A DNA stretch of 64,000 nucleotides from Phyllobates terribilis. Its lineage: Eukaryota. Position 1 is the stretch's first letter. The number at the start of each line of letters is the position of its first letter. The DNA is taken from positions 410,502,001-410,566,000 of the forward strand of contig NW_027362767.1 of NCBI RefSeq assembly GCF_046119375.1, written 5' to 3'. The notes beneath the pieces are model-generated. The model was not told the DNA's origin. It was given only the letters and a program-made list of their open reading frames with translations, and did not search any database. Positions 7,771 through 54,844 of the stretch are shown piece after piece. Made by a program: the position numbers and the translations under genes.

Positions 7771-8768
7771 TGTGGCACCCCAGGGGTCTGGTTTCCACAG
7801 TAACAGTAATGTTATGTCTGAGAGCAGGTGGGAGGTCTCTTGGTCAGGAATCCTATGCATGCCACACCTCCTGCCCAGTCCTGGGAGGGGAAGGACTTCC
7901 CCTATATAAACCTAGGGCTGAGGCAGGGTGAGTAAGTAGAGAAGAAGTAGAGACAGAGAAGAGAAGCAGATATAGGAAAAGAACATCAGGAGCTCTGTGG
8001 GAGCAGTGCTATAAGGAGTCAGGGGCTGGCAGCTGCAGAGCTCGCCCTGACTGAGAAGCTATCACCGGACCCGGAGTCCGAGGCTGTGGGGACTAATCCT
8101 TACCCAGCAGCAGAAACCGCCCGGCAGGGGATTTCAGGTCCTCTGGCCAAGGAACCCGAAGGCACGGTCACACGCGTGGGACCAGCACCGCCGTCGTGGA
8201 GCGGACGCCACTAGAAGGCCCCGAGTCACCGGCCATACGGGTGAGCACCACACGGTACACTCAGGGACGTGGGCTACTTATACCCGCCTCTAGCAAGGTA
8301 GCCAGAAGAGTACAGTCAGTTTGGGAGGCCTACAACTCCGCCTGGCCAGGGGAGATCCCATCTGCTCAAGGACTGACCAGGCCCCGATCGCTAGCCAGTA
8401 CTCCGGGAGGGTCTATCTTTATCACCAGTAAAGACCCTGAATTACACCGCATCGTCTCTGAGTGATTCCTGCTACCCCATCATCCACGTCGGCTGCCCTG
8501 AGGCCATACCCCTCCCATTGGGGGTGATACTATCACGCTGCACAATCCTACCACCGGCCTCAGCGGTCTGCCCTGCAGTGGCAGCTCCTTCGCTGCATTC
8601 AACGGATGGCGTAGTCGTCCAACATCTACCGCTAATACAGCGCCACTTAGTCTGACTCCCTGGGCACGGACCGGGTCACCGCCACGAGACTACAACCCTC
8701 AACAGATCCGGCTCCGGGTAAGCTCCCGCGTGCGCAACGCTGCGTGACACAGGCCCAGGGGTGCGTCA
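7771..8768 (+). repeat. 5' LTR of the Gypsy element
   Basis: Direct repeat of 13270-14267 with about 10 substitutions counted by eye. TG...CA ends; TATA-like CCTATATAAA near 7903. Confidence 0.95.
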
Positions 8769-8773
8769 ACTTT

Positions 8774-8791
8774 TGGCGTAGTCGGCAGGAT
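8774..8791 (+). promoter_or_regulatory. Primer-binding site complementary to the tRNA-Ser 3' end
   Basis: TGGCGTAGTCGGCAGGAT is the reverse complement of ATCCTGCCGACTACGCCA, the 3' end of vertebrate tRNA-Ser(AGA/TGA). It lies 5 nt after the LTR. Confidence 0.9.
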
Positions 8792-9209
8792 CTCGTGCCC
8801 GCAACCACCGGGTACTGCGTGCCTGAAAAAGACTGTTCAAACTTACCAGTGGTGAAGATTCCCGCCATCCGGCGCCATCTTCTGTCTTCTTCCCGCCATC
8901 CGCGAAGTTTTCCCGCCATCCGGCGCCATCTTCTGCCTTCTTCCCGCCATCCGTGGAGTTTTCCCGCCGTTGGACGCCATCTTGAAGACACCGCGCGGGA
9001 AGAAGAGGGGCGTGAACTCCGAAAGCGCGCGAGAACTGAAGCCCCGCCTCACGTCCGGACGTTGCGTAAGGTCCTGGAAGGAGCCCAGCAGACGCCGACG
9101 TCACAGGAGCGCGACGGAAGGTCTTCAACCCTGACGATCCACTGCGGAGCCGCGGCCTACGGAAGAGGATCATCGCAAGGTAGGCCACGGTCCACTAGGG
9201 GGGAGAAGG

Positions 9210-10190
9210 ATGTCGGATATGGAGGAGAGCTTCACCGCTTCAACCCCCGCCAGCGCCACCGCTGTTGCGGTCATGCCTTTCACCATGCCCTATATCCCGG
9301 GGGCAGCCTGGCTACCCCAGTACTCAGGGGAGTCACATACCCTGCATGACTTTAGAGAAAAGCTGGATAGCCTCTTCCAGGTGTATCCCCTCACAGAGGA
9401 GCAAAAAGTGAGCATCCTGGTGGCCCAATTAACCGGGGCAGCCCAAAGGGAGGTAAAGTCCTGGCCACCTGGGAGGAGGACTGTCGCAGAGATACTAACC
9501 CGGCTGAGGGACACCTTTGATACCCGCACCTCAGTCGAGATCAAGCTTAGATTCTACGGGTGCAAACAGCGGGCACATGAGAGTATAAGGGACTATGCCC
9601 TGAACCTACAAGAGGCCCTGAGAGCCATTAAGCAGACCGACCCTGACGGCGTGGGAGACGAGGACAGGCTGTTGACTGAACAATTTATAGAGGGTTTATA
9701 TTGCAATGCCCACCGAACCCAGTTGCGGGCAATGGCCTTACAGGACCCTCATCTGGGATTTGCACAGTTTAAGGACAGAGCCATCCGGGTGCTCCGAGAA
9801 CCGGCACCAGGTGGCGTTGTGACCCACAGACGCCCCACTACCACTTACCACCAGGAGGCGGCACCCTTGTCGGCAGGGCCTGTGGGAGCTGATGCGCAGG
9901 CTTTGAACAATGACCCGGCTCCAGACCTGCACCATCAGGTCCAAGAGCTAGCTAAAAGCGTTGCCGCGCTAACCCGAACTGTGCAGTCTTTACAGGTTTC
10001 CACTCCAGGGAAGATCCAGCTGGCATCCGGACCGGAGGACATCCCGTGGCCTCGACCAAGGAGGACCCCACCGGCCAGAGGAAGACCCAGCGACCGATAC
10101 AACGAGGACGGACAACCCATCTGCCGCCGCTGCAATCAACCCGGACATATGGCAAGGTACTGTCCTTTAAACTGGCACAACCTGGGGTAG
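9210..10190 (+). CDS. Gypsy Gag (capsid-like domain plus CCHC zinc knuckle), 326 aa
   Basis: Intact ORF downstream of the PBS. It has a capsid-type region (EEQKVSIL..LTGAAQ..LRDTFD..KQRAHESIRDY) and the knuckle CRRCNQPGHMARYC. Confidence 0.9.
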   Translation: MSDMEESFTASTPASATAVAVMPFTMPYIPGAAWLPQYSGESHTLHDFREKLDSLFQVYPLTEEQKVSILVAQLTGAAQREVKSWPPGRRTVAEILTRLRDTFDTRTSVEIKLRFYGCKQRAHESIRDYALNLQEALRAIKQTDPDGVGDEDRLLTEQFIEGLYCNAHRTQLRAMALQDPHLGFAQFKDRAIRVLREPAPGGVVTHRRPTTTYHQEAAPLSAGPVGADAQALNNDPAPDLHHQVQELAKSVAALTRTVQSLQVSTPGKIQLASGPEDIPWPRPRRTPPARGRPSDRYNEDGQPICRRCNQPGHMARYCPLNWHNLG

Positions 10191-10206
10191 AGGGCCAAAC
10201 CCCAGG
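10166..10206 (+). promoter_or_regulatory. -1 ribosomal frameshift signal (gag-pol)
   Basis: Slippery heptamer T TTA AAC (10166-10172) in the Gag frame, an 8-nt spacer, then an 8-bp stem CCTGGGGT/ACCCCAGG (10181-10188 and 10199-10206). The -1 frame is the protease ORF. Confidence 0.8.
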
Positions 10207-10822
10207 AAAAAGATCATCAGGCCCATCGAACTGGCGCGACAAATATGTGGGAGGACGTCCAGTCTTGCCCGTGGTACTGGATGGCATCCCCATGAGTGCC
10301 CTACTGGACACCGGGTCACAGGTTACCACTATCCCGTACGTGCTCTTCAAGCAGTACTGGAATGACTCGGATATCACCCGCTACCCTGACGACGACTTGA
10401 GTATCATCGCCAGCAATGGTCAGCCCGTGCCACAGATTGGATTTAAAGAGGTGATTTTCCTTTTACAACAGGTTGCCAAGAACGCCAGCTCCGGCCAGCA
10501 GCGACTGCTCCAGAAAGAGATCCGGGCACTGATGCGACGGCAACAGATAGAACTCTACGGTGGTGAGATTGGTAGCGTAAGAATGTGTGACCCTTTCCCT
10601 ATTGCCATGCCCCCAAAAAGTGAAATGATGATTTGGTGCCGGGCAGCTATTGGTCTGAGAGGTAGAGATTACCAGGCAATGGTAGAACCAGTTTACTCAG
10701 ACAGTAGGCCCACCATTTTGACAGCACGGGGGGTGGTCAATGTACGCCATGGCAGGGTGCCCGTTCGCATAATAAATATCGGGAAGAGGGAAGTGTACCT
10801 GCCCCGGTATGCCACGCTAGCC
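10166..10822 (+). pseudogene. pol 5' part: truncated aspartic protease and post-protease region
   Basis: Active-site motif LLDTGSQVT is present. The C-terminal hydrophobic-hydrophobic-Gly motif of retropepsins is not seen. No RT motifs follow. Confidence 0.8.
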
Positions 10823-12909
10823 GAAAACTGCGATCCACCGAAAGAAACCCTGAGAATTACAGCTCATTTAAGCTAGAGTTCCTGGCAGTGGTGTGGGCAG
10901 TCACCGAACGCTTTAAGCACTACCTCGCTTCTTCCCGGTTCACCGTGTACACGGATAACAACCCGTTGACACACCTGGACACGGCAAGACTCGGTGCCCT
11001 AGAGCAGAGATGGATGGCCCGTCTGTCCAACTATGAGTTCACAATCAAATACCGGGCAGGACGCTCCAATACCAACGCGGACGCCCTGTCCAGGATGCCA
11101 AACCTACCGGACGTAGGAGAAGATCCAGAGGGACTGGAAGAAGTCGAACTCCCCGCGTTCCACCGTCATGGGACTATTCAGTATTCCCATCGGGTAAGGA
11201 GTAAGCAAGCCGCTACGTTTAACCCCTTGCCTCACTACAACTGGGAGGAAACGCAAGACAGTGACCCTGCCGTCCGGCTGGTGAAGGAGATGCTGACTCG
11301 GCCAGAGGCTCGCCTTGACCCAGACGCTCCGGAGGAAGCCAAGCAACTGTGGGCTGAGAAGAGTCGACTGTTCCTTTACAAGGGGAAGTTGTGCCGCAGA
11401 ATGGTTAACTCCCGGACGCAGGAACAAATCTGGCAAGTAGTGGTGCCACGGAGAGACGCAGCCATGGTGATGGAAGCATACCACGACGGGGCTGGACACT
11501 TCGGATGGAAGAAGCTGGAGTTCCTGCTGCGTGGGCGGTTCCACTGGGTAGGCATGAGGGGAACCATCGAGAGGTGGTGCAGAGACTGTGGCCCGTGCAA
11601 CCTAAGAAGGAAGGACCGTGTCAGCCAGAAGACTCCCCTGCAGTCCATCGTCACCCGGCAGCCGTTGGAACTGGTAGCCTTGGATCATGTAAAACTGACC
11701 CCAAGCAGAAGTGGCTACGTCTACGCGTTAACCATTGTGGATCATTACTCCCGGTTCTTGGTTGTCGTCCCCGTTAAGGACTTAACGGCTCAAACAGCAG
11801 CTAGAGCCTTCCAGCAGCACTTCTGCCGCCCACACGGGTACCCGGACCAAGTGCTGACGGACCAGGGACCTGCCTTTGAAGCGGAGGTCTTCCAGGAATT
11901 CTGCAATCTGTATGGCTGCCGGAAGATAAGGACGACACCCTATCATCTGCAAACTAATGGACTTTGTGAGAAAATGAACCAGGTGGTAATGGATCTCCTG
12001 AAAACGTTGCCCCTGGAAGAACGCAGTCTGTGGCCTGAGAAGCTGCCCGATCTGGTGGACCTATACAACCACATCCCGGTAGGTTCCACCAACTGTACCC
12101 CGGCTTACCTAATGAGGGCGAGACCTGGTAAGTTACCTGTTGACCTGGAAATGGGAGTCCTGACACCCGAGGACACTTCACCAGAGGCAGACTGGGACAC
12201 AGAGAGGCAGCAGCAGTACCGGAAAGTACAGGAGAGCGTGGAGCGAAGTCTCTGTCAGGCTAGGGAAAGACAAGAGAAAACTTACAACCAGTATGCTCCC
12301 GCTGTTCCCCTCATACCCGGAGAGCAGGTCTTGAAGAGGAAAAGACGGCTCCACAAGTTGGACGACCAGTGGGAGAAGGACCCGTACACCGTACTGCCCT
12401 CAAGCCATGAGAACCCAAAAGTCTGTACCATCAGTAAAGACGGAGGGGAGACCATAGCCATTGTATCCCGGGATCACCTGAAGAAGTGTCCTGAACAGCT
12501 ACGGAACCCTGAAGAGGAACAAGAAGACCATCGACCCGTAGAGGAAAGGGAAGATATGGTTAGTACTGTGCTCGGAGACTTCCCTCGGTCCTGGACTCAA
12601 GTCAATGGTGCAGTTGTGGTACCCGTCCTCACGTTCCTCCAACCAGCATCCCAAGTGCCTACGGAGCAACAGGTAGAGCTGGAAGAGCAGCCGGTCCAGG
12701 AGGCAGAAGACTCCACACAAGCAGAACAGGAGGATCAACCCTCTGCTTATAGTGAGCCTGCCGTACCCCTAGTGAGCCAAAGAGCCGGTAGACAGCTGCC
12801 CAGTTTACCCTTGACAGCTCCTACACCCTGTAGTTCAGGGCTAGACAGTCAGCTCCGTAGGTCCACTAGGGCCACTAGAGGCCAGTTACCCGCACGTTGG
12901 AGGATTTGA
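10823..12909 (+). CDS. pol 3' part: RNase H C-terminal half plus integrase (673-aa ORF 10888-12909)
   Basis: RNase H tail: ASRKLRSTERNPENYSSFKLEFLAVVWAV..TDNNPL. HHCC zinc domain: HDGAGHFG..CRDCGPC. DDE core: ALDHV / TDQG / CEKMN. Confidence 0.9.
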
Positions 12910-13260
12910 AGTGTATAAATTGTTTTATTTGTGGTTACCTGTTTTTCTTGTTGCTTGTGTATAATTATGTGTTTCTAGTTATTTATAGGAGTCCTTGGTG
13001 GATTTACCGGGAATCCTTGTACATGGTTGGAGCGTAACCTAGGAATGGACTAAAGACTGTTAAGGACTCGGGGCAGGACAGACCCCTACCTGGTTACGTC
13101 TCCCTGTTTTGGTGAAATGGACACCTTGCTTTTCTTCAAAAACTGCACCCGGTTGCGGACACGCCGTGACCATCTTTATATGTTTTTCTTATTGTACTAT
13201 TATTGTTTATACCTTGTTATGTTTAAAAATATGTTTAGTCCCGGAGTACTAAATTTCACT

Positions 13261-13269
13261 AGGGGGGAA
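13261..13269 (+). promoter_or_regulatory. Polypurine tract
   Basis: AGGGGGGAA lies immediately before the 3' LTR start TG at 13270. Confidence 0.85.
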
Positions 13270-14267
13270 TGTGGCACCCCAGGGGTCTGGTTTCCACAGT
13301 AACAGCAATGTTATGTCTGAGAGCAGGTGGGAGGTCTCTTGGTCAGGAATCCTATGCATGCCACACATCTTGCCCAGTCCTGGGAGGGGAAGGACTTCCC
13401 CTATATAAACCTAGGGCTGAGGCAGGGTGAGTGAGTAGAGAAGAAGTAGAGACAGAGAAGAGAAGCAGATATAGGAAAAGAACATCAGGAGCTCTGTGGG
13501 AGCAGTGCTATAAGGAGTCAGGGGCTGGCAGCTGCAGAGCTCGCCCTGACTGAGAAGCTATCACCGGACCCGGAGTCCGAGGCTGTGGGGACTAATCCTT
13601 ACCCAGCAGCAGAAACCGCCCGGCAGGGGATTTCAGGTCCTCTGGCCAAGGAACCCGAAGGCACGGTCACACGCGTGGGACCAGCACCGCCGTCATGGAG
13701 CGGACGCCACTAGAAGGCCCCGAGTCACCGGCCATACGGGTGAGCACCACACGGTACACTCAGGGACGTGGGCTACTTATTCCCGCCTCTAGCAAGGTAG
13801 CCAGAAGAGTACAGTCAGTTTGGGAGGCCTACAACTCCGCCTGGCCAGGGGAGATCCCATCTGCTCAAGGACTGACCAGGCCCCGATCGCTAGCCAGTAC
13901 TCCGGGAGGGTCTATCTTTATCACCAGTAAAGACCCTGAATTACACCGCATCGTCTCTGAGTGATTCCTGCTACCCCATCATCCACGTCGGCTGCCCTGA
14001 GGCCATACCCCTCCCGTTGGGGGTGATACTATCACGCTGCACAATCCTACCACCGGCCTCAGCGGTCTGCCCTGCAGCGGCAGCTCCTTCGCTGCATTCA
14101 ACGGGTGGCGTAGTCGTCCAACATCTACCGCTAATACAGCGCCACTTAGTCTGACTCCCTGGGCACGGACCGGGTCACCGCCACGAGACTACAACCCTCA
14201 ACAGATCCGGCTCCGGGTAAGCTCCCGCGTGCGCAACGCTGCGCGACACAGGCCCAGGGGTGCGTCA
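13270..14267 (+). repeat. 3' LTR of the Gypsy element
   Basis: Near-identical to 7771-8768. Confidence 0.95.
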
Positions 14268-14748
14268 AATGCATTGAAGCTATGGACTGGCCCGCCCGTT
14301 CCCCAGACCTGAATCCAATTGAGCATATCTGGGACATCATGTCTCGCTCCATCCACCAACGTCACGTTGCACCACAGACTGTCCAGGAGTTGGCGGATGC
14401 TTTTGTCCAGGTCTGAGAGGAGATCCCACAGGAGACCATCTGCAACCTCATCAGGAGCATGCCCTGGCGTTGTAGGGAGGTCATACAGGCACTTGGAGGC
14501 CCCATACAATACTGAGCCTCATTTTGACTTGTTTTAAGGACATTACATCAAAGTTGGATCAGCCTGTAGTGTGTTTTTCCACATTCATTTTGGGGGTGCC
14601 TCCAAATCCAAGCCTCCATTGGTTAATAAATTTGATTTCCATTGATGATTTTTGTGTGATTTTGTCAGCACATTCAACTTTGTACAGAACAAACTATTCA
14701 ATGAGAATATTTCATTCATTCAGATCTAGGATGTGTTATTTGAGTGTT

Positions 14749-19930: not shown

Positions 19931-20441
19931 AGCAGTGCTTCTTTAGGCTACAACTCTTTCTGACATGGGACTAAGATGGGTCGCATGCTTGAAATATGTG
20001 ACTATTGTATAAACGCATAATAGTACATGATACGATTCTGAGTCTTTGTATGTCAAAATGCCACCAAAAACTGCTTTCTGGTATGTGATGACAGCCATTT
20101 CTATCCCATTCTCAGATAATCCCTTTATTTAATGTATTTTTTTTACAATTTTTACTATACTTTTGTTTTACAAACATATACTGTATAGTAAAAAATGCAA
20201 TAGATACAATATCAGAAACATTATAGAAAAGGCATATATTAAATTATAATGTACAGTATATACACCAAACATAGTTCTGTACAGTAGCTACTGTTCCTCA
20301 TCTGTTTCTATGAAGTTTAGCAATTACCTTTCCATTTACAAATATTAGTTTCCAGTTTAATATTTTAGTTTATGTTATGTTATGTTACATTATGCGTTAT
20401 TCTTTTTAGGAACATTTTTGATGTTACCAACAGGTAGCAGC

Positions 20442-21398
20442 ATGGAAATGATAGAAAAAAATCAAAGCCTTGTCGTGTTCTTCATTATTAAAGGCATTTG
20501 CGATGCACCAGAGCTGCAGATGATAATCTTCATTTTAGTTCTTCTTGTATATCTCATAACCATTGGTGGCAACATGATCATTCTGTTCTTGATCTGCCTG
20601 GATCCTAAACTTCACACTCCTATGTACTTCTTCTTGGCCAACTTGTCTGTATTAGACATGTTCTCCACCACCGTGACTCTTCATAATATCCTTATCATAT
20701 TTATAACGGGTGATAACAGGATCTCCTTTGAGAGTTGTATTTGCCAGATGTACTTTTTTGGGTTTCTCATATGTGATGAGCTCCTATTTCTAACTGCTAT
20801 GAGCTATGATCGCTATGTTGCCATTTGTGATCCTTTGAGATACCACATGGTCATGAGTCACAGACTCTGCATTGTTCTTGCAATTTGCTGTTGGCTGTTG
20901 GGCATGATAGAGGTGATACCCTACATGATTTTGCTTTTGGGCATTACATGCTACAAATCAAATGTAATAAATCACTTCTTCTGTGATCTTGTACCTCTCA
21001 TGATATTGTCCTGCAGCAACACGTCAATACTGGAGATCTTAAGCTTGACAGAAGGTCTTCTCCTCATTACTTTTACCCCATTCATTTTGAAGTTCATATC
21101 TTACATCTTCATCATTTCAACAATACTGAAGATCCATTCCAGCACTGGTAGACAGAAGGCTTTCTACACTTGCTCCTCACACCTCACGGTGGTTATACTA
21201 CTTTACTCTACCCTCTTCTTCCAGTACTTGATGCCTACATCATTAGATACTTCGAAGTCAAACAAGTTCTTCTCCCTTTTTAACACAGCTGCTATTCCTG
21301 TCTTAAATCCCCTTATTTACAGCTTAAAAAATAAAGATGTTAAGTCGGCAATGATACGAACATTAAGATATATTAAAAGTTATAGGAGGTCTACGTGA
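20442..21398 (+). CDS. Olfactory receptor, intact, single coding exon, 318 aa
   Basis: N-glycosylation site NQS; LHTPMYFFLANLS, MSYDRYVAICDPLRY, HFFCD, KAFYTCSSHL, PVLNPLIYSLKNKDVK. The probable start is ATG 20442. The track's upstream 20 codons use a non-ATG or less likely start and overlap a possible splice acceptor (CAACAG, about 20433). Confidence 0.95.
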   Translation: MEMIEKNQSLVVFFIIKGICDAPELQMIIFILVLLVYLITIGGNMIILFLICLDPKLHTPMYFFLANLSVLDMFSTTVTLHNILIIFITGDNRISFESCICQMYFFGFLICDELLFLTAMSYDRYVAICDPLRYHMVMSHRLCIVLAICCWLLGMIEVIPYMILLLGITCYKSNVINHFFCDLVPLMILSCSNTSILEILSLTEGLLLITFTPFILKFISYIFIISTILKIHSSTGRQKAFYTCSSHLTVVILLYSTLFFQYLMPTSLDTSKSNKFFSLFNTAAIPVLNPLIYSLKNKDVKSAMIRTLRYIKSYRRST

Positions 21399-40502: not shown

Positions 40503-40766
40503 GAAAATCCATTTTGGTTTTGTTTTTGTATGTTTTATTGTGAGTCCGTAAAAGTGGCGTAATACCTCTGACAACGTTGTTGACAGCAGTGACCTGGGAG
40601 TCAGAAATGCTTCCAGGGGTCTTCCACATGCTGTTCCCCTGTCATTTGAGCACTTTTTTCATTGATTTGGGCAATTTTTAGGCCCTCTGCAGACCGCCGG
40701 GGGGAGCCGCCGGAAAAATGCTCAAGTTTCCCATAGACTTACATTGGGCTCGTTACTCGGTCCGAG

Positions 40767-41709
40767 TGTAACGGGGGGCAGGGTGGTAGTCATGGGCGAG
40801 TGGTACGTCTGTTTCAGTGACTTTCTCTTCACTCTTGCCCGCTACAAAAATATGGGGACGTGCTTGTCCCTGGGTGTGTGCTGTTGTGCTTCCGTGGAGG
40901 AGACCTCCATACTCACTTCTGACCCGCCGTCCTGGGTGTTGAGTCTTTTAGCCTTCAGAAGGAGAAAATCAGACCAGCTTAAAAACGTAAAAACTTCTCT
41001 ACTTGCAGCCACAGTCACATACAGGGAGTAACAAATGATACAGTCTCTTTGTGATCTCTTCACATACAGCGGCAGTTTACCAGTGATGAAAGACACAGAT
41101 TTGGATATGAAGATTAAAGTCGAATGCGCCAGCTCTATGAGTAACTTCATTCTCTGTCCCACTGCCTGACCTGCTTGGATCCACCTTCCTGATGTGGTTG
41201 TCCTGTCTCGGCACGTAAGGTGAAGTTCCCAAATTGACCTCTTCATGTACACCTGTTCTTATTGTCCCTGCTGTCTAGATTGCTTGGATTCATCTTCCAG
41301 ATAAGGTTGTCCAAAAACTCCCAGATGTGACACACACACACCCTTCTCCGGTACTTTCTCCTGTGTCCTCCTGACATGTTCTCACTAATCACTGTCCCTC
41401 ACTCAACTAGAACTGCCTGCAATCAGGAAATGTCTCAGTTCTTCACTGAACCTGCTCCTCCCACACTGGAGCAGCTCCTAAACCCCTTAACTCTTTCCTT
41501 ACTTATAACTACATACTCTGTATGCTATAGTGCCCACCTCTGCACTGCTCTCCTACCAATCCAATAGTCTACCTGCACTAACCTATACTGACCCTGTAAG
41601 TAACCCATCACACATTAGGTCACATAAAAGCTCATATATAAACACAGAATACAACACTATGTGCACCAAGAGGGAAGAGGCTCATGACCGTCCCGGTCAC
41701 CCTCTTACA
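40767..41709 (-). repeat. 3' LTR of the CSD-bearing element
   Basis: Homologous to 49766-50737 with multiple substitutions and indels (943 versus 972 bp); adjacent to the PPT. Confidence 0.9.
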
Positions 41710-42846
41710 TTCCTCCCTCTTAAAACATGGTCATCCCGACCATGACAACACCTGTAAAAAGAAACACCAATGCACATTTAAAACATTCAACACATATGTT
41801 TATATAAAAATGCACGATAGATTAAAAACACTTTAATCACTTCTTCTCGCTGGGCAAACTTGACCTCGGTCCCACTCGGTTGGGACCCTGGAACACAGTT
41901 CAAGTTCCTTTAAACATGGGTCCATCTGACCCCGGCCCTCTTGCTCCTGGGACCCACAAAAAAAATTAAATGTCCATCACAGGCCCATTGGCCAACAAAT
42001 CCTGCTCTGGTTTACCAAACACAGGAAGTCCCTGTTAATAACACAATGGCCCACTGGCCATCTTACATCAGCTCTGACAGTCCTGGAGCAGTGATCCGGC
42101 ACGATCCTCAGGTCATCCTGACAGTTTTCTCCCTCCTTTTTGCTGAGTACAGTCCCTTTAAGAATCATGTGTTGCTCAATAGCTTCTATAGAAGAGCACA
42201 GTCCATGGAGCAGTTACACACAGTCCTTTAGTGTGGGAGATTTAACCCTATCAGGGTTCAGTCCCGTAATCCAGCAGGGGAATGTGCAAACATACGCAAC
42301 AGAACGTGGAGAGGGGAAAAACACAAAATAAAATCACCTCCGGCCATCTGGCCAGCACCAACTCCGCTTGGTGCCATTAGGGCTCCTTGCCCTTTAGGAG
42401 AAGCAGAACAGTCTTTTTATCAGTGGCCACGTCCTTGGCCACCTCCGGTTGCCACCGGGTTGAACAGGAGCTCCTGCCCCTAGGAACGCGGAACATTTCC
42501 CTTTGCATGTTTCACGGTGAAACTAGCACAACTTGGGTGGCGGTTTCACACCGCCGGGTTAGTCTGCAGCTTCTGTATAGTGGTTGTAGTTTACCACCCC
42601 ATTGTCCTTGAATATTAGGACCATCTGTCCCGCCGATACTGTAGAAGACAAGGAGCCTCCACTCTCTCTCCTGGTCCTCTCGTGTATGGCTGGGCTAGGT
42701 GCTGGGCCAGCCACCTCTATAGGGATACTTGCTGCGGGGGTGGTAGCCGCCGCTCCCACTGGTTCCTTCCGCGCTGGGGCCATTTACAGGGTCTGCAGCA
42801 GCTGAGTGATAGACTCGGCTATTTATGAGGACATCTCAATGGGGTC

Positions 42847-43866
42847 TCATTCACGATCTGCAGGCGTCACAATTAACTGCTGCACGATGGCCGTAGTTTC
42901 CGACTGCACAGGACGGTTTGTGGCCTGCTGCTGATCTGCCTCAGGCAATATGGCGACGGCCACTTCATACGGGCCTCGGGGCCCATACGCCTTAATAAAT
43001 GTGACTGCTGCCAACTAGCAAGGGGAAGCTGCCGTTGATAGACCCGGCATTCACATATACCTTCTCTCCGGTCCCTGATTCTTGTAGGAAACCGTAGCCG
43101 CAAGACAAGTTGAAATGTCGAACTAGGCCGCGAGTCATCTGGCTCCCCCCCCCGGGCGCTGTAGTTCCTCCCGTACTTGGCGCTCTCGCCGCTTCTTTCT
43201 CTCTATCACCCCCACGATCCACTGTTCCTCCTCCTCTCTGGGGGTTCTCACCGCTTCCTGGTAAGTAGGGGCGATGGGCTAGGGGCAGGAACCAGATAAA
43301 GACTCACTGCCGCCATGGTCACCCGAGCCACCTCCCTGGTATCTGAAGACACCGCCGCTGCAGTTATTCCACCGATCGCCCAGATTTGTTCCATAGCTTC
43401 TTCTGCCTCCTGGCGCGTCATCACGGGAGCCTTCACAGTTTCTGCCAGCGGCACGATATTCCTCCGCGGATGTTTATACAGGGACCAGCCTGGTACGAGT
43501 AACATGTCATCCTCAATCGGGTAGTCGTGTAGGTCGCAGACTCCCCAGCGGCCAACTGGTCTCTTCTCTTCCTCCTGGCTCTGCCTGCGCCACTCCCAGT
43601 CAATGCGTCAAAGGCCACGCGATGTGACATGGTCTCAGGCTGTTGCAGCTTCACCGTCTCCTTCATTAATGGCACAAAACTGCTTGACATTAGGGATCCT
43701 ACCTCCAGGCTCCACCCATCCCTGAATGGAGCCGCTACCGGCAGCTCCTCCCACTCAGCCTCTGTCTCCGGGATCTTCAATGGTGGGCAGGGTTTCTTCT
43801 TTCTTTGCCACGCCCACCACAGGCAGGCACTGCTCACAGAGGCCGCAGTCTCAGTCCGGCGTCCAT
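42847..43866 (-). pseudogene. Frameshifted ORF of about 340 codons with a C-terminal cold-shock domain (CSD about 42955-43138)
   Basis: MTRGLVRHFNLSCGYGFLQESGTGEKVYVNAGSINGSFPLLVG, a frameshift at about 43009, then AVTFIKAYGPRGPYEVAV. This is collinear with CspA/Y-box CSD (KWFN, RNP1 GFGFI, RNP2 VFVH, VSF, GPKGP.A.NV). Upstream coding pieces lie in ORFs 43433-43837, 43248-43505 and 42992-43222. Confidence 0.7.
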
Positions 43867-43897
43867 ACAGTTTTTCGTGCCGTTTTGCGCTCAGGAT

Positions 43898-46800
43898 TAG
43901 AGATGAGCGGTGTTCGACTAGAACTGTTCGCCAATCTCAAATTCTAGCTGTTTTGGGCGGTGTTTGAGTCGTTCGACGAACGCAAGCGATTTGTAAAAAA
44001 TTTGGCTGTTCTAGGTTATGTTTGATAAATGTTCGTGCACCAAAAGCGTGCCCTGAATATCTGGTGCTATTTAGAGCACCAATCATGCAGGGATTGTCTG
44101 CCACTCACTGTAATGCCACAGCCTTGATGGTTGTGGAATTACAGTGGTTGCCCAAATCGATGGGAACAGTGCTCACAGTGAAATATGAAAAGCCGGCAAT
44201 TCAGCAGCGGCATACACCGGTACCAGACAATTTAGAACAGAAAGAATAGAGCATCACACATAGATTAGATAGATAGAAACGTGTCAGTCACATATATAAG
44301 AAGTACAGTGACAGTGTTGGTTACTGTACTTGTCATTTAGTGTTAAAGGATTTATTAAAAAAAAAATAGTGTTTTCTTGCACCTGTCTCTTTAAAAAAGC
44401 CGGCCGGCAATTCAGCCTCGGTACCCGACAATTAAGAACAGAAAGAATAGAGCATCACACATAGATTAGATAGATAGAAACATGTCAGTCACATATATAA
44501 TAAGTACAATGATAGTATTGATTACTGTACTTGTCATTTAGTGTTAAAATAAAGGATTTATTTTAAAAAAAATTGGCGTGGGGTTCCTCATAATTTTAGT
44601 CTCTAGCGGAGGTTAAGCAGACGGCTGGGGCAGATGTTTGAAGCCTGGGAAGGGGGTAATACCCACGGAGCTTCCCAGACTACTAATATCAGCCTCCAGC
44701 TGAATACCTAGCCTTTACTAGCTATTAAAATGGGGGACCCCAAAAAAAATGACATGGGGTCCCCCCTAATTTAATAGCTAGCAAAGGCTAGGCAGACAGC
44801 TGGGGGCAGATATTAATAGTCCAGGAAGGGTGCCATGAATATTGGCCCCCTCCCAGGCTAGAAACACCAGCCGTCAGCCGCCCCAGAAAATGGCGCATCC
44901 ATAGGATGCGCCAATTCTGGCACTTAGCCTTGCTCTTCCCACTGCCCTGTAGTGGTGGCAGTGGGGTAATAGGGTTGGGGTTGATGTCAGCTTATAATGC
45001 CAGCTGACATCAAGCCCAGGTTAGTAATGGAGAGGCGTCTATAAGACACCCCCATTACTAACCTCATAGTGAAATTTAAAAATAAACACAAACACCCAGA
45101 ATAAAGTCCTTTAATTGAAATAAACACACAATTCTTAAATGTTCTAAATTAAACTCTACTTACCGTAACGCCCATTCCAGCTGAAGCCAATGATCTCCTG
45201 CAATAAAAATAAAATAATAAAGCAACCTCATCCTTACCTTTCCATGGTTCCCAGGACAGCTTCCGCTCTGCTACATCGAGATGACAGTCTGGACCGCAGC
45301 AGAACGCTGCCATCCAGCTTGCCATGCAGCAGACACTGAGAATCTCCTCAGTGAAGCTCCTCAGTGTCTGGCTGTGACGGCATCCAAATGAGCCAAGTTC
45401 ATGTCCAATGAACTCAGCTCACCTCATGCATGTCACTGACAGCGTGGGAGAATTCTCCTGCGCATGTGGTGAGCGCAGGAGAATTCTCCCACGCTGGGAT
45501 GGCATTGAGATGACAGGCTGGATCGCAGCTGAGCGCTGCCATCCAGCATGCCATCCTTCTGAGACACTGCAGAGCACAGGCATGCTTGCGCTCTGCAGTG
45601 TCTCTGAAGAATGACAAGCTGGATGGCAGTGCTCAGCTGCGATCCAGCCTGTCATCAGAATGCCATCCCAGCGTGGGAGAATACTCTTGCTCAAGCGCTG
45701 AGCACAGGAGAATTCTCCCACGCTGGTATGGTATTGAGATGACAGGCTGGACCGCAGCTGAGAGCTGCCATCCAGCATGCCATCCTTCATAGACACTGCA
45801 GAGCACAGGCATGCTTGCGCTCTGCAGTGTCTCTGAAGAATGACAAGCTGGATGGCAGCGCTCAGCTGCGATCCAGCCTGTCATCTCAATGCCATCCCAG
45901 CGTGGGAGAATTCTCCTTCGTTCACCACATGAGCAGGAGAATTCTCCCACGCTGTCAGTGACGTGCATGAGGTAAGCAGATTTCATTGGACAAGAACTCG
46001 GCTCATCTGGATGCCGTCACAGAGAGACACTGAGGAGCTTCACTGAGAAGCTTCTCAGTGTCTGCGGCATGGCAAGCTGAATAGCAGCGGTCTGCTGCGG
46101 TCCAGCCTGTCATCTCGATGTAGCAGAGCTGAAGTTGTCCTGGGAACCAAGGAAAAGTAAGGATGAGGTTGGTTTATTATTTTACTTTTATTGCTGGCTT
46201 CAGCTGGAATGGGCGTGACGGTAAGTAGAGTTTAACTTAGAATATTAAAGGAATGTGTATTTATTTCAATTAAAGGACTTTATTCTGGGTGTTGTGTTTT
46301 TTTTAAATACTTTACTAGAAATTCATGGCGGTCATGTCTAATATTGGCGTGACCCCATGAATTTCGGGCCTAGGGCCAGCTGATAATACCAAGCTGGCGC
46401 TTCTATGAACGCGCCATTTTCTGGAGTGGCTGAGACTGCAATTTGCAGCGGGAGGGAGGGCCCAAAAAGCTTGGGCCTCCCTGCGCTGCAGATTTCTGCC
46501 CCCAGCTGACTAGTTGTACCTGGCTGGACACAAAAATTAGGCGAAGCCCCAAATATTTATTTTTTTTATTATTTCATGAAATTTATGAAATAATAAAAAA
46601 AAAAGGCTTCCCTATATTGTTGTGTCCGGCCATGTACAAATAGGCAGCTGGTGGTTGGGGGCAGCCCATTCCTGCCTGCTGTACCTGGCTGGCATACAAA
46701 AATATGGCGAAGCCCACGTCACCTCATGCACGTCACCTCATGCACGTCACTCACAGCGTGGGAGAATTCTCCTGCGTTAAGCGCTTGAGCAAGAGAATTC

Positions 46801-49478
46801 TCCAATGCTAGGATGGCATTCTGATGACAGGCTGGATCGCAGCTGAGCGCTGCCATCCAGCTTGTCATCATTCAGAGACACTGAAGAGCGCAAGCATGCC
46901 TACACTCTGCAGTGTCTATGAAGGATGGCATGCTGGATGGCAGCACTCAGCTGCGATCCAGCCTGTCATCTCAATGCCATCTCAGCGTGGGAGAATTCTC
47001 CTGCGCTCACCGCAAGCGCAGCAGAATTCTCCCACGCTGTCAGTGACGTGGATGGCAGCGTTCTGCTGTGGTCCAGCCTGTCATCTCGATGTAGCAGAGC
47101 TGAACCTGTCCTGGGAACCATGGAAAGGTAAGGATGAGGTTGGTTTATTATTTTATTTTTATTGCAGGAGATTGTTGGCTTCAGCTGGAATGGGCGTGAT
47201 GGTAAGTAGAGTTTAATTTAGAACATTAAAGAATTGTGTGTTTATTTCAATTAAAGGACTTTATTCTTGGTGTTTGTGTTTTTTTTTAACTTTCACTATG
47301 AGGTTAGTAATGGGGGTGTCTTATAGACGCCTCTCCATTACTAACCTGGGCTTGATGCCAGCTGGCATTATAAGCTGACATCAACCCCAACCCTATTACC
47401 CCACTGCCACCACTACAGGGCAGTGGGAAGAGTGAGGCTAAGTGCCAGAATTGGCACATCCTATGGATGCGCCATTTCTGGGGCGGCTGACGGCTGGTGT
47501 TTCTAGCCTGGGAGGGGCCCAATATTCATGGCACCCTTCCTGGGCTATTAATATCAGCCCCCAGCTGTCTGCCTAGCCTTTGCTAGCTATTAAAATAGGG
47601 GGGACCCCACGTCATTTTTTTGGGGGTCCCCCATTTTAATAGCTAGTAAAGGCTAGGTATTCAGCTGGGGGCTGATATTAGTGACGCGCCCCCAGGGCCG
47701 TGGGAGTACTCGGCAGCCGGGCCTCTGCGTATGCCGGTGGGGGATATCACGGTGGCCGGCCCGGTCCGTGACCCAGGGCGGTCAGTAAAAAGGGGAATTT
47801 ATAGGGGATTTGGAAAGTTTGTGACGCCGCCAGTGGAATGCGGCAAAAGGGGTGCTGCCGCTGCGGAGCAGTCCTCTGGAGCGGGTGTTACGGCAGCAGG
47901 GATGGTGTGGCTCTCCACAGGTAGAGCTAGCTCCAGGGCAGTGTGGGGTGTTATGGAGGATGCTGGGGAGAGACGGCAGGACGGTCCCGGAGAAAAGACG
48001 GACACTCACACCGGGGTAAGCTTCAGTACCTTTACTGGTGATGGTGCAGGCACGGTACAGGGTACTCCGGGCGAAGGATGCACTTTTGGACTCTCCCCAG
48101 TGAGCGGGTATAGGGCCTCCTGATCCGTGGCTTTTCTTGCTAAGCTTCTGGCCTGCCTGGAACTAGGTCTAGCTTGGTTACTGTCTCTCTCTCCCTTGCA
48201 CCTGCTGACCTGGTGGTAGGGCCTTCTCTTTTGAGATCACACTCCCTGGGCGCTGGGGCCTCCATGACTCCTAGCCCTGGTACTGTTGTCAGCGTTTGGC
48301 AAACCTGGGACCTGTAGTCCTCCAGGGGTTCCGGTGGTCCCTACTGGCTGTAAAGAGTCCCTGTAGGCGCGGACCCGGTGTTCGGTATATATCTCGGGGT
48401 GAGCCTGGTATGCTCCTCTGCCCCCTTGCTACTTCTTCCTTCTCCTCTCTTCCTCTCGCCTTCGGCCACACTCAGGGACCTCACTAGGCCTTCACACGTG
48501 CTGTAGGCCTTGGCTCGCCTAAGCACAGCAGCCAACGTGCTGCCTCTTTGCTGCTCTCTGAGCGTCAGCACGCTCTCAGCTAACTCTGAGCTCTGTTCCT
48601 CTCTGTGTCTGAGCAGGAACTGAACTAACAAGTCACTGAGCTGCCTGGCTCCACCCTCCCTATATATGTCCCTAACGGGCTCCCTCTGCTGGTCTGAGGT
48701 GGTAGGGTGGAGGTGTGTGAATGTGTGAGGGCCTCTTGTGGAGAAGTCCATCCATGCACCCTTCTGGGTTCTGTGGCACCAATGCGCAGCAGGGCGCCAC
48801 ATTAGTAGCCTGGGAAGCTCCGTGGGTATTACACCCTTCCCAGGCTTCAAACATCTGCCCCAGCCATCTGCTTAACCTCCGCTAGAGACTAAAATTACGG
48901 GGAACCCCACGGCAATTTTTTTTTAATAAATCCTTTATTTTAACACTAAATGACAAGTACAGTAATCAACACTATCACTGTACTTCTTATATATGTGACT
49001 GACATGTTTCTATCTATATAATCTATGTGTGATGCTCTATTCTTTCTGTTCTAAATTGTCGGGTACCGATGCTGAATTGCCGGCTGGCTTTTTTAAAGAG
49101 ACAGGTGCATGAAAATATTATTATTTTTTTTTTATAAATCCTTTAACACTAAATGACAAGTACAGTAACCAACACTGTCACTGCACTTCTTATATATGTG
49201 ACTGACATGTTTCTGTATATCTAATCTATGTGTGATGCTCTATTCTTTCTGTTCTAAATTGTCGGGTACCGGTGTATGCCGCTGTTGAATTGCCGTCCGG
49301 CTTTTTTAAAGAGAGTGTCTTCTGAGCAGTTTGTCAGCTTTTGGACACCTTTGAAGGTGTTTTCTATGTGTTTTCTATGTGTTTCTATGTGTTTTTGTTT
49401 GCCTGCCATTGGTTTTAACGGTGTTCGACGGTGTTCTAAGGTGTTCGACGAACAGTTCCACGGGGTGGCTCAACACTA
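43898..49478. mobile_element. Non-autonomous hAT foldback element (5581 bp including the solo LTR)
   Basis: Termini TAGAGATGAGCG and GCTCAACACTA; perfect 8-bp TSD CTCAGGAT (43890-43897 and 49479-49486). Long internal inverted arms. The first about 150 bp match the reverse complement of 7170-7318. Confidence 0.9.
47682..48801 (-). mobile_element. Solo LTR (1120 bp), Gypsy-type
   Basis: On the minus strand it starts TGTGGCGCCC and ends CCCTGGGGCGCGTCA, similar to the ends of the LTR at 7771. 4-bp TSD TTAG (47678-47681 and 48802-48805). It interrupts the right foldback arm, which is continuous in the left arm. Confidence 0.85.
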
Positions 49479-49765
49479 CTCAGGATGCCCACGATGGGCG
49501 GAACTATCGCCAACCTCTGCGCCATCATCCGCCATCTTGGGACTCACATTGCTGGCAGCCATCCTAGGATCGCCATCTTGGTCGGTCATTTTGTTTCGTA
49601 CATTTTTCACCAACTTCAGTTATCTTTGTTTATATTCAGGCGCTTCATCTGCGCCAAGGGCCTTTTTCTTGCGGTCTTTATCCAGCATCTTCTCTCTCTT
49701 GTCACAGGACCTGTTCACCCCGCTGTTTGGATGAGAGGACTTCGCATCCTGCCGACTATGCCAAA

Positions 49766-50737
49766 TGTAACAGGGGGCAGGGTGGTAGACGTGGGCGAGT
49801 GGTACATCTGTTTCAGTGACTTTCTCTTCACCCTGACCTGCTACAGAAATATGGGGACGTGCTTGTCCCTGGGTGTGTGTGTACTGTGGTGCTTCCGTGG
49901 AGGAGACCTAAATACTCACTTCTGACCAGCCGTCCCAGGTGCTGAGTCTTCTAGCCTTCAGAAGGAGAAAACCAGACAAGCTTAAAAATGTAAAAACTTC
50001 TTTACTTGCAGCCATAGTCACATACAGGGAGTAACAAGTGATACAGTCTCTTTGTGATCTCTTCACATACAACAGCACTTTACCAGTGATGAAAGACATG
50101 GACACCGATTTGGATATGAAGATTAACGCCGAATGCGCCAGCTCTATGGGTAACTTCATTCTCTGTCCCACTGCCTGACCTGCTTGGATCCACCTTCCTG
50201 ATGTGGTTGTCCTGTCTCATCACATAAGGTGAAGTTCCTAAATTGACCTCTTCATGTACACCTGTTCTTGTTGTCCCCACTGTCTAGACTGTTCAGACTC
50301 ACCTTCCAGATAAGTTTGTCCAAAAACTCCCAGAATGTGACACATACACACCCTTCTCCTGTACTTTCTCCTGTGTCCTCCTAACAAGTCCTCACTAATC
50401 ACTGTCCCTCACTCAACTAGAACTGCCTGCAATCAGGAAGTGTCTAAGTTCTTCACTGAACCTGCTCCTCCCACACTGGAGCAGCTCCTAAACCACTTAA
50501 CTCTTTCCTTACTTATAACTGCATACTCTGTATGCTATAGTGCCCACCTCTGCACTACTCTTCTACTAATCCAATAGTCTACCTGCACTAACCTACACTG
50601 ACCCTGTAAGTAACCCATCAGACATTAGGTCACATAAACACTCATATATAAACACAGAATAACAGTTCAAATAACAGAACAACACTATGTCCACCAAGAG
50701 GGAAGAGGCGCATGACCATCCCAATCACCCTCTTACA
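49766..50737 (-). repeat. 5' LTR of the CSD-bearing element
   Basis: On the minus strand it is followed by TT and the tRNA-Ser PBS. Confidence 0.9.
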
Positions 50738-52426
50738 CGAGCACTTGAGCATTCAAATTTGCTTGACAACGAGTACCCGAGCATTTTAATGCTCGCTCAT
50801 CACTACATGGCAATGTTACCTATCCACTCTACTCTTGGTTCTGTTCTTCACTATCTACAGTACCTCTACTGTTTCAGAGCCTCTGTACAGTCTTTTTTTT
50901 ACCAGTAAAAATCAAATTGGGAAAGGGGAGAGAGGGAAAGGAGTTGTGAATAAAAATTAACCTTAATTAATTTGATTTAAAATATCATAAATATCATAAG
51001 TGTGGAAAAAAAACCACATACACCCTGTGTGGATGTATATAAGGTCACAGCGGTGGATAAGGTGGCTGTAACCCTGTAAATCCTGGAAATTATAGGACAG
51101 CACAAATTTATATTGCCACAACCAGGGTCCCTTAAATTAGATGGTTGGGTAATAAATCAACCTAGGATTCTGAATTAAACCTATCCCAAGTATGTATATA
51201 TTCTCTATTTAGTGACAACTGCCCTTATTCACAGTGCTATACATTTTGAGCACCTGACACAATCTTGTAAGTACCCATAGATCGCTAGCATCCACTTTAC
51301 TATTAGATGTGCCGATATATTAAAGGTTATTACAATTAAATATCGCCCCTGTGTTGTGTGCGATCATATATCAAGGGTGCGGAGATTGTATCTACATCAC
51401 CACCATTATCATACAGGTCAGGTAGTCAGCCTGACCGTTTAGGTGGATGATAATCCATCCACACCATACCCTCTGACGGGAGCAGTGCGGTCTCCAAAAC
51501 TGATCGCGTGCACGTGGTGCACACGCGGTCTGTGTAAGCAGGAGACGGTAAGGCTCCAGGGAGACGCTATCGCGTTCCACTTAACATATCAGTCATGTCA
51601 GTCAGTCTCTCTGCCCTTATCAATATGTACGTCACTTGACAAATGGTAAGGTTTTAATATTAGAGTTAGGACTGTCCCATAAGGGTTGCCGTGACGAGGC
51701 GGAATAGCTTTTACATTATTTTGATCAAAATTATGTTAACTAAATACCCTTCATTATTTATTATTATTTTTGCACTGTGCGATTTACCCATTTACTTCCA
51801 GTTACTTGGGTATTTTGCTTGTCTTTGGTTTTTTTTATGCAAAAAACAAGCACTTGTACGTTTAGGTTTATGGAAATTTAAAAAAAAAATTGAGCTCTTG
51901 AAACGCATTTAAAAGGATTAAAGTTGCTTTAAACTTAATAGGTTAAAGCTTAGGTTAAAATCTCATCACATTATATCTTAGTTAGGTGTCAGGTGTGATT
52001 AATTAATTTTAATTAGTGATATCCCTCAGAGACCTTCTATACTCGCAATGAAGACTTTTCTGGCTATATATAATGCAGGAGCTACTTTTATGAACAGGTG
52101 ACAGATGATGGGTGGAAACTCAACTGAACTGAATGACTAAGCAAATTCTAGCAGATTATAGACAGTGTGCACCATGGATTGGCTTTGAAAGATGAAAAGT
52201 TAAAAATATCTAGGTAGGACTAGATGTAAAAAGTTCCCGCATCATCGAGAACAAATTAATACTTTTTTTAACATCAGAATAGGAAAATTGCTCATTTTTT
52301 GATGAGTTATATATTTTTCAAAATCTCAAAGATGTGTTATGACTTTAGGTACATAAATGTTAATTAATATGGATTTTCTAATATTATTTGTTTATTATTT
52401 TTTTAAAGGGACTGTCCAGGACTATC

Positions 52427-52469
<43 letters not shown>

Positions 52470-53888
52470 AAATCAGTTGGTATCCTACAGTCTGTGCCCT
52501 CAAATATCAGAAGTTATCTGCTCTGGCGTCAGGTTTACTTTAAAATTATTAAGTTCATTGCTCAACATTAGTGAACAATGGTAAAATGAGCTGTTAGTAA
52601 ACATTTTGGAAAGATTTATAATTGGCTTTTAACCAAAAGTATGTGACTTTTTTTTTGGTTTCTGGTCTGGCAATTTTTCAAAGATGACTATCAAAGTGAG
52701 CAGGGCTGTGCATAATTTTTTGAGACTTACATCTAAAATTGTAGACCACGCTGACGAATGTGAACAGAAGAATTAGATAAAAATTAATACTGCTAAATAA
52801 ATCGAAATATGCTATATTTAATAGATGGCATGGTCATCTTAATACATTTTTTGCACCTTATTATGATGTATATGAGCATAAGATTGGCGTATGAAGCACC
52901 CCCTTTATAACCTAGGAGGCTTCTACAGACCATTTTTAATAGAGAAGGAAGATATACTGTTGAACGGGCTATGCTTCGGTAAATGAAAAGCCTTTTGTGT
53001 TCCAAAACAGTCTATTATTGCTTCAAGGCATTTCGATGCTGGACCAGCGCCTTTCTCAAGGTAAAAAAAACATATTGTCCAGGGTGGAAACGCGTTGGTA
53101 CAATAAAAAATAATTTTGGAATACATAAGACTTCTCGTTTACCACAGCGCAGCTCGTTCAACATTATAACATCCTCCTGTACTATTATTCATGGGGAAGA
53201 AGTATTTCTTCTCCAGCCACGGGGCCGAGCACACAGTTACACGTGTCAACAGGTGTTGTGCATTCACACAACAGCGCATACTCCCACCTTTCACAAACGC
53301 TACCAGGCGATATTGCTCTCTGTGTGTGTGAGCTTTTGGCCCCCAAACAGTTTCACAGGCCATTATTGGCAAAGCACATGTATAAAAATAAATACTGTGA
53401 AATCTCTTTCTGATGAAAACCCTAAATCGCATTGAAAAGTTGTGTTCCAGAGATGGTGCCACCCCAAGAAAAATTTCCACCATATATGAGTACGATATTC
53501 TAAAACTCAAAATTTATTACAAATTAGTTTAGATAAATGGGTGGTCTTCTCAAAGATATGGTCTCTTTGAAAGGGTCCAACAAAACCAAAATGGTGGTCT
53601 ATCCTTACATTCCTGGTAATCCCCACAATTGGCCGATTGAAGGTCGCTGTGGCATTCCATATTCATTTGTATGAGATAAAGTATTGATCTATGCCTCGTA
53701 AATTATGAGGGCCTGTCGTGAGTCAGATACTCGTCAATCTATATTGATGGCCTTTCCTATGGATCAGTCAGTTTAGTAGACCAGGGAACCTTCTTTAATG
53801 GCAATGTAATATCTAATATACTGTATATATTAATGTTTGCTTTATTTTTGAAAAACAGGGTTTTCAATATAAAAAACAAACTTAGAGT

Positions 53889-54844
53889 ATGGAGCAAGGA
53901 AATTGGACCATGGTGACGTATTTCATTATTAAAGGGATATCTGATGTCCCAGAGTTGCAGCTTCCAATATTTCTTCTTGTTCTTCTGATATATCTCATTA
54001 CACTAGGTGGTAACATGACTATTCTAATGGTGGTCTGTCTGGATCGTGTACTCCACACTCCCATGTACTTCTTTTTGGGAAATCTGTCCATAGTGGACAT
54101 GTCTTCTACAACTGCTGCTCTCCATAAGGGACTTCTAATTTTTATCACTGGGGACAGAGTAATTTCATACGTGAGCTGTATATCACAAGTTTATTTTCTG
54201 GGATGGCTCACTAGTGATGAACTTCTGATACTGACAGCCATGAGTTGTGATCGATATGTGGCCATCTGCAACCCCTTGAGATATTCTGTGATCATGAACT
54301 GGAGACTTTGCTGTTGGTTGGCTGTCGCATGTTGGGTGGTGAGCTTTGTAGAAATCACACCTTATGTTATTCTAGTGACAAGCTTTTCCTGCTATAAATC
54401 AAATGTGGTCAATCACTTCTTTTGCGATCTTGTACCCCTCAAGAAACTTGCATGCAAGGTGAACTTTTCATTTGAAATGTTTACAATAATTGAAGGAGTT
54501 TTCATCTTGACCATTCTTCCCCTCTTTCTGACCATTATATCTTACATATTTATTATCAACTCGATATTGAAGATCCAAACCAGTAGAGGAAGACGTAAAG
54601 CCTTCTACACTTGTTCTTCACACCTCACTGTTGTCATTCTTCTCTACACCACTCTGATCAGTCAATACCTAAGTCCAACTTCAAATGATATAGAACACAA
54701 AAAACTTCTCTCTCTCTTCAACATGGTGGCAGTGCCAATGTTAAACCATTGCTTTACAGCCTGAAGAACCGAGATGTAAAGTTGGCCTTACAACGACAGT
54801 TACATCTTTTCAGTAAGAAATGTAATGCTTTTGCATCACGGTAA
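53889..54844 (+). pseudogene. Olfactory receptor with a single 1-bp frameshift in TM7 (or a sequencing error)
   Basis: Open for 291 aa with LHTPMYFFLGNLS, MSCDRYVAICNPLRY, HFFCD and KAFYTCSSHL. Adding one C at 54746-54747 restores PMLNPLLYSLKNRDVKLAL...SR* (stop at 54842-54844). Confidence 0.9.

Follow-up and report, generated by a model that had tools for sequence, protein, structure and literature searches.

We analysed a 64,000-nucleotide stretch of the genome of the frog Phyllobates terribilis (assembly GCF_046119375.1, contig NW_027362767.1, positions 410,502,001 to 410,566,000 of the forward strand), hereafter called the window. On its minus strand the window carries a long terminal repeat (LTR) retroelement, for which a cold-shock domain (CSD) gene, and neither gag nor pol, had been predicted from the sequence alone. 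This element is a dead member of a recently active family, designated family A, whose intact copies contain a single open frame with a CSD. We call this frame the cargo frame.

The element in the window

The LTRs have the form TG...CA, and the 4-bp target-site duplication (TSD) CGAG flanks both ends of the element. The LTR pair, the TSD, the primer-binding site, and the polypurine tract of the original prediction were all found again, and the features of the locus are as follows (window positions).

40763-40766: TSD CGAG (4 bp), left copy
40767-41709, minus strand: 3' LTR, 943 bp, TGTAAG...TTACA
41710-41721, minus strand: polypurine tract
41722-42558, minus strand: 3' untranslated region, 74-90% shared with sister copies
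42559-42945, minus strand: C-terminal tail of the cargo frame, predicted to be disordered, with stops in the window copy
42946-43138, minus strand: CSD, in two frames, split near 43010 in the window copy
43145-43270, minus strand: remnant of a P-x-Y motif and a charged helix, directly before the CSD
43271-43889, minus strand: middle of the cargo frame, basic and then acidic/proline-rich, with frame changes near 43610 and 43285
43890-43897 and 49479-49486: the two copies of the 8-bp TSD CTCAGGAT of the hAT-type element
43898-49478: nested hAT-type element with long inverted arms, which breaks the cargo frame
47682-48801, minus strand: solo LTR, TGTGGCGCCC...GGGGGCGCGTCA, TSD TTAG, within the hAT arm
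49487-49745, minus strand: start of the internal region, in the cargo-protein frame of the open copies
49746-49763, minus strand: primer-binding site, 18 bases, TGGCATAGTCGGCAGGAT
49766-50737, minus strand: 5' LTR, 972 bp
50738-50741: TSD CGAG (4 bp), right copy

The internal order is thus 5' LTR, two bases, primer site, 260 bp, hAT element, 2.18 kb, purine tract, and 3' LTR. After subtraction of the hAT element and the solo LTR, the internal region measures about 2.45 kb, close to the 2.4 kb given previously. The solo LTR had not been listed in the original prediction. Its 3' end letters are the same as those of two groups described below, lineage B and the gag-pol Gypsy elements L102 and L103 (L numbers denote loci); the ends alone are alike, and blastn gave no match to the LTRs of these elements at E<1e-8. 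The primer site, which we take to be of the tRNA-Ser type, differs by one base from the form in the sister copies. A tRNA search of the window gave none.

The two LTRs of the window copy are 93.2% identical (Kimura two-parameter distance 0.072; the compared spans are one base off at the ends), and the insertion is therefore old. The frame had been placed at about 43866-42847, with the CSD lining up after correction of one frameshift at about 43009. It instead continues for about 125 codons past the CSD to 42559 and, according to the family profile, starts upstream of the hAT element, inside the 5' LTR. The hAT element disrupts it, as do frame changes near 43610, 43285, 43141, and 43010 together with several stops. 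With 93% LTR identity, a hAT insertion, and four or more frame changes, this copy is dead.

The element lies within a short hAT-type repeat (50742-50805 and left of 40763), the terminal repeat of which ends at 50805; a left end matching this terminal repeat was not found within 38-52 kb.

Family A and its cold-shock domain

The window frame was left unmended, and natural open copies from the same genome were used instead. A DNA search with the CSD region as the query gave at least 46 genome matches (40 of 149 candidates scored), a protein search gave at least 151 (150 of 24,407 candidates scored), and a 33-base 3' end motif from the purine-tract region had at least 96 exact occurrences; all of these are minimum copy counts. 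The complete sister copies measure 3.7-4.1 kb and have 4-bp TSDs that vary between copies. Their LTR identity ranges from about 92% to 99.6%, with 98.5-99.6% in the young copies, and the family has been recently active. The genome-wide search suggested with the original prediction yielded copies with intact frames: several have a single open frame of 650-700 codons (about 670), which starts within the 5' LTR, crosses the primer site, and extends about 100-125 codons past the CSD. The reported absence of gag and pol holds for the window element and extends to the family, since neither was found between the element ends at any of 55 ten-kb family loci (0/55); nor was pol found upstream of the 3' end in the first 30, by position, of the 96 motif occurrences (0/30).

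The same internal region is flanked by two LTR types, which are alike only over the first 300 bp. In younger copies the last 150-200 codons of the LTR are poor in stops in the cargo frame (for example, L061:7742-8238, L073:7446-8085, and L222). Over the last 150 codons, the mean number of stops is 0.8-3.0 in this frame versus 7-9 in the other frames (39 copies from family A and from lineage D, described below). Such a stop-poor LTR frame is absent from 21 gag-bearing elements (8.1, 8.3, 11.3) and from 13 elements of lineage B or helper type. Some loci (L068, L074, and L106) contain tandem copies with a common middle LTR, and near-identical repeats of one insertion occur on contig C26. An Rfam search of two copies gave nothing credible. 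Contigs from sequencing runs of guessed RNA or unknown type cover A and B elements and not the low-copy flank that is covered by a DNA run; high-copy trace DNA could explain this pattern, and we do not count it as evidence.

In the window copy, the CSD fragment matched the Pfam CSD family (PF00313) with E=0.0025 and 0.00039, under the curated cut-off because only half of the domain is present, and the family profile detected each half, in a different frame. The 11 open frames first tested all matched PF00313 along the profile, four of them above the cut-off, and the frames of L061 and L076 were likewise above it; six open copies of family A scored 28.6-32.5 bits (cut-off 27) and the others 14-27. 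No domain besides the CSD was found in Pfam scans of the full frames. A profile search against solved structures placed CspA and YBX1/2 equal first (E 3e-12 to 2e-11), with LIN28 and CARHSP1 at the bottom. The domain is about 30% identical to CSDs of the host and of bacteria.

The predicted structures are consistent with this assignment. The full-length model is of low confidence (predicted local distance difference test, pLDDT, 34) except for the helix and the CSD strands, and contains no helical domain, and a model of the helix and CSD built on 26 copies reached a pLDDT of 85.6. A five-stranded beta barrel is predicted, for which the best Foldseek matches are bacterial Csp, YBX1/2, CARHSP1, Lin28, and Unr domains (root-mean-square deviation mostly 1.1-2.6; 1.1-1.5 for 3i2z, 1mjc, and 6ktc). 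Judged from its sequence, the element frame holds a true CSD, and the cargo protein is, by prediction, largely disordered, with a CSD preceded by a charged helix. The predicted fold thus agrees with the proposed oligonucleotide-binding fold, and the Pfam matches of the open copies bear out the proposal of a non-autonomous LTR family with a CSD in one frame. A PPxY-type motif, presumably a late domain, precedes the helix in 24 of the 27 copies with letters there.

Relatives over the full length were not found: a word search of the protein collection with the full-length protein P0001 gave no match, a whole-library profile search gave no full-length relative, and viral contigs gave no relative. 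Ten profile-search matches were looked up by name, of which two are frog proteins and the others are unnamed or bacterial-type CSD proteins. The ESM Atlas returned Csp clusters only (0.79-0.85), which serve as leads only, and the viral structure library returned only phage and giant-virus Csp.

For the analysis of selection, 219 frames with profile hits were reduced to 38 distinct ones in which the whole CSD was open, and to 35 after dropping three rearranged or fragmentary frames. The ratio of nonsynonymous to synonymous divergence (dN/dS) was calculated pairwise on these 35 frames by the NG86 method and binned by distance. It was 0.22-0.37 in the CSD. The charged helix gave 0.28-0.38 in four of five bins and 0.77 in the closest one, and the N-terminal part 0.45-0.67. 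In the LTR-coded part the ratio was 0.63-0.94, where the most distant bin aligns non-homologous LTRs; the LTR-coded peptide is under hardly any constraint. The CSD differed by 0.19/0.13/0.33 at the three codon positions, and the LTR part by 0.13/0.14/0.14. These values show purifying selection focused on the helix and the CSD.

Other lineages, single origin, and candidate helpers

In a Pfam CSD search of the genome, all 150 scored matches were over the cut-off, among 33,380 first-look candidates that mostly went unscored. Most of the matches that were fetched belong to lineage B. These are pol-less LTR elements of about 4.9 kb whose 1.2-kb LTRs reach 100% identity; they have the primer site of family A and a frame of 710-816 codons ending in helix and CSD. 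The helix and CSD are the only part common to A and B, and in lineage B the CSD has a dN/dS of 0.20 (9 frames). Lineage D has 1.04-kb LTRs, further B-like variants exist, and L175 carries a divergent CSD that retains the His of the RNP2 motif. The genome thus contains at least four lineages of CSD elements (further lineages at L151-L167, L171-L175, L210, L215, L222, and L223). Related proteins, annotated as uncharacterised, occur in three further dendrobatoid genera, namely in Dendrobates tinctorius (A-like), Anomaloglossus baeobatrachus, Ranitomeya variabilis, and R. imitator. Presumably these too lie in LTR elements, and the Anomaloglossus protein includes a translated primer site. Matches to Phyllobates terribilis proteins come from the same genome and are not independent.

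A CSD tree placed all 15 element rows in one clade (96/90 in a 51-row tree; 88 in a 107-row quick tree), separate from the host CSDE1-like domains and from a lone degenerate YBX-like host copy. Among the rows tested, the element CSDs have a single origin. The tree is based on 68 columns, with outgroups chosen by similarity to the query and without intact rows for YBX or LIN28, and it does not settle the donor. A search for host YBX that started from the degenerate copy returned only itself. The host labels are our assumption from motifs, both for the CSDE1-like pieces (L121-L128, L168, and L178; C1:734.44 Mb and C2:702.8 Mb) and for the YBX-like copy (L174). The CSDE1-like pieces apparently include duplicated, intron-poor copies. 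In four gene models from frog annotations (P0003, P0155, P0158, and P0159), a CSD is fused to DDE transposase, R3H, MIF4G-type, and astacin genes; these are probably annotation joins and possibly real exonisation.

The broken window copy and the many copies that have lost the domain could suggest that the CSD is a neutral host fragment, recently captured and carried by chance. The purifying selection in two lineages, the one deep clade over four genera, and the low identity to host and bacterial CSDs leave this explanation with next to no credibility, and we regard it as largely refuted. The many open frames and the dN/dS well below 1 likewise speak against the neutral evolution that the original prediction had named as a refutation.

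The gag-pol Gypsy elements L102 and L103 have the same primer site and 4-bp TSDs, and L103 encodes, in order, a PNMA-type Gag, a knuckle, protease, reverse transcriptase (RT), RNase H, and integrase. Other gag-pol elements have TGTAA...TTACA ends like those of family A. A lineage B copy shares with L103 about 300 bp of the LTR end at about 90% identity and the leader at 86%, and family A shares only the primer-site region with it. A helper of family A was also sought by primer-site and 3'-end patterns, and none was found among the matches examined (10 of 31, 15 of 46, 30 of 362, and 30 of 96). Mobilisation in trans is the only reasonable route for family A, and gag-pol Gypsy elements that use its primer site likely supply the enzymes; the evidence for a specific helper concerns lineage B and not family A. 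An L103-type Gypsy lies in the window itself (7771-14268, plus strand), with 99% identical LTRs and the same primer site; its gag, RNase H, and integrase are open, and most of its RT is missing.

The cargo frame, where it passes through the primer site, is the frame in which gag starts in the gag-bearing elements with TTACA ends. This agreement, together with the PPxY-type motif, could suggest that the cargo is a remodelled gag, in which the capsid decayed, the CSD took the place of the zinc knuckle as nucleocapsid, and the product co-assembles with a helper Gag. However, the agreement of frames is weak because just two of the three primer-site frames are open. Profile-profile comparison with local Gag gave a probability below 1% for both A and B, Pfam scans of the cargo frames found no capsid or knuckle family, and the full-length model, of low confidence as stated, shows no helical domain. 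We thus consider a gag ancestry improbable. With no gag similarity and many copies, the possibility raised earlier that the frame is an ordinary degenerate gag, with a CSD motif in a single copy, found no support.

Proposed role and comparison with known elements

We propose, with about even confidence, that the cargo protein binds the RNA of its own element and thereby aids its survival and its arrival at a helper particle. Element RNA would be translated, probably from inside the 5' LTR since the LTR end is stop-poor in the cargo frame, into a disordered CSD protein. The CSD would bind single-strand RNA, with a preference for the RNA from which the protein was translated, and the bound RNA would gain stability or entry into helper particles. 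Copies without the CSD would be free riders on those with it. We infer the steps from translation onward, as well as the preference for own RNA and the stage of the cycle at which the protein would act. The preference is proposed because free riders could exploit a product with an action purely in trans, and one would not expect such a product to be kept at a dN/dS of about 0.2 across lineages with dS above 1. YB-1 is reported to support HIV RNA metabolism and early replication steps (PMC6040738); a CSD protein can thus serve a retroelement, which says nothing direct about the frog element.

Several observations weigh against this proposal. First, the binding face of the CSD is altered. The original prediction that all CSD elements line up held for RNP1 and was too strong for the beta-1 Trp and the RNP2 His. 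RNP1, [YF]-G-F-I, is retained (Y in 35/35, G in 33/35, F in 35/35 as demanded by the filter, and then I, L, or V), and so are the basic character of the Csp Lys position and an additional invariant Tyr in the last strand. The beta-1 Trp is replaced by His (29), Tyr (5), or Asn (1) in the 35 frames, and the RNP2 His by Asn in 35/35, so that binding may be weaker or different. CSDs are described to bind single strands by stacking on exposed aromatic residues (PMC7825780). Since the aromatic stacking face is altered and RNP1 is kept, single-strand nucleic-acid binding by the modelled domain is plausible but not assured.

Second, the pairs compared in the dN/dS analysis are non-independent and the copies were selected for an open CSD. 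This filter cannot explain the signal, because between subfamilies dS reaches 1-2 while dN stays at about 0.2-0.35. Third, none of the gag-pol elements examined shares more than the primer site and the LTR end letters with family A.

Fourth, many copies lack the domain. In 30 copies taken in order of position, the CSD was in one frame (stops allowed) in 15, split or partial in 4, and lacking in 11. Six of these 11 have one common in-frame 660-bp deletion, which removes the P-x-Y motif, the helix, and the CSD (deletion loci: L081, L083-L087, L106, L107, L109, L111, L112, and L114-L117). The deletion occurs with both LTR types, which indicates recombination between subfamilies, and in copies with 99% identical LTRs. 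The remaining frame of the deleted copies has a dN/dS of 0.39-0.49 (4 copies). Since copies with the in-frame deletion transposed, a moving copy does not strictly require a CSD of its own, at least while copies with the CSD are around.

The movement of these deleted copies is also what would be expected if the protein worked in trans on other RNAs, dampening the silencing or translation control of the host in germ cells or diverting helper RNA, so that all members profit. The little sequence selectivity described for CSDs (PMC7825780) and their repeated capture by bird retroviruses (PMC12287698) would fit such an action. However, a pure shared good would be hard to hold at a dN/dS of 0.2 over dS above 1 in several lineages, which is an argument and not a test, and we consider this explanation, which ranks ahead of the remodelled gag as the main rival, rather unlikely. 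Binding of the CSD to single-stranded or promoter DNA, with an action on the reverse transcript or on transcription and not on RNA, appears very unlikely, as the helper particle would bring its own nucleocapsid, the Gag zinc knuckle. Returning to the binding of own RNA, we tentatively suggest, with clearly less confidence than for the binding itself, a wider scenario: an old and still active radiation of satellite retrotransposons in poison frogs may have given up Gag and evolved a Y-box-like RNA-binding adaptor, translated inside the LTR, that would mark its RNA for the helper Gypsy particle or shield it from germline silencing, and the copies without the CSD, as free riders, would add a third tier of parasitism.

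Like Y-box proteins and CspA, the element domain has the CSD fold and RNP1, and Y-box proteins likewise embed the CSD in disordered charged regions. It differs from them in the roughly 30% identity noted above, the replaced beta-1 Trp and RNP2 His, the long charged helix before it, and its encoding by a mobile element. In LIN28 the CSD is followed by two CCHC knuckles, whereas the frog frames contain no knuckle according to Pfam, and LIN28 was the weakest CSD class. Soybean SARE and SNRE are reportedly pairs of autonomous and non-autonomous LTR elements with LTR swapping; the likeness lies in one internal region with different LTR types and in a passenger lineage that shares the LTR end and leader with a gag-pol element. 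They are not known to carry a CSD cargo.

As a rule, non-autonomous LTR elements are empty or hold remnants of gag. Several lineages of this genome keep under selection an unrelated domain of RNA-binding type as their sole predicted folded part. The near-identical LTRs of some copies make these elements part of the recent growth of a 10.6-Gb genome, and the tiers of helper, CSD passenger, and CSD-deleted copy offer a testable case of gene retention in a parasite of a parasite.

The capture of CSDs by LTR retroelements is already published for birds, and pol-less single-frame elements are known in Xenopus. Endogenous retroviruses of birds carry a pfam00313 CSD, and He et al. (2025, PMC12287698) consider that its repeated capture may be adaptive. 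The bird and frog elements are alike as vertebrate LTR retroelements with a pfam00313 domain. According to the same study, the bird elements are retroviruses by RT and captured CSDs several times, in varying places (46 elements, a legend count that includes S1-like domains). In contrast, the frog family lacks the retroviral gag/pol/env backbone (3.7-4.1 kb, one frame); its CSD is the sole predicted folded domain, the setting is Gypsy-like, and the CSDs, on which selection was measured, group in a single clade. Taken with the bird retroviruses, the frog elements suggest that the CSD has been repeatedly useful to retroelements.

Xenopus 1A11 and Xretpos are described as pol-less, single-frame LTR elements that number tens to hundreds of copies, and that description mentions no CSD (PMC4585706). 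As 1A11 is described there as Gag-like, the frog family, whose frame shows no Gag similarity, is set apart from gag-only elements of this kind by description. Literature searches for CSDs in frog and fish LTR elements, which covered the D. tinctorius genome preprint and PMC4131045 but not Repbase or Dfam entries, supplements, or the majority of subscription papers, found no gag-less, pol-less family with only a CSD.

The window lies in a receptor cluster. Two olfactory-receptor frames are present on the plus strand (20361-21395 and 53886-54761), and a block is duplicated at 35.2-38.6 kb and 59.1-62.5 kb. A hAT-transposase-like frame of 1147 codons with a BED zinc finger (1045-4485, minus strand) recurs beside several of the fetched loci.

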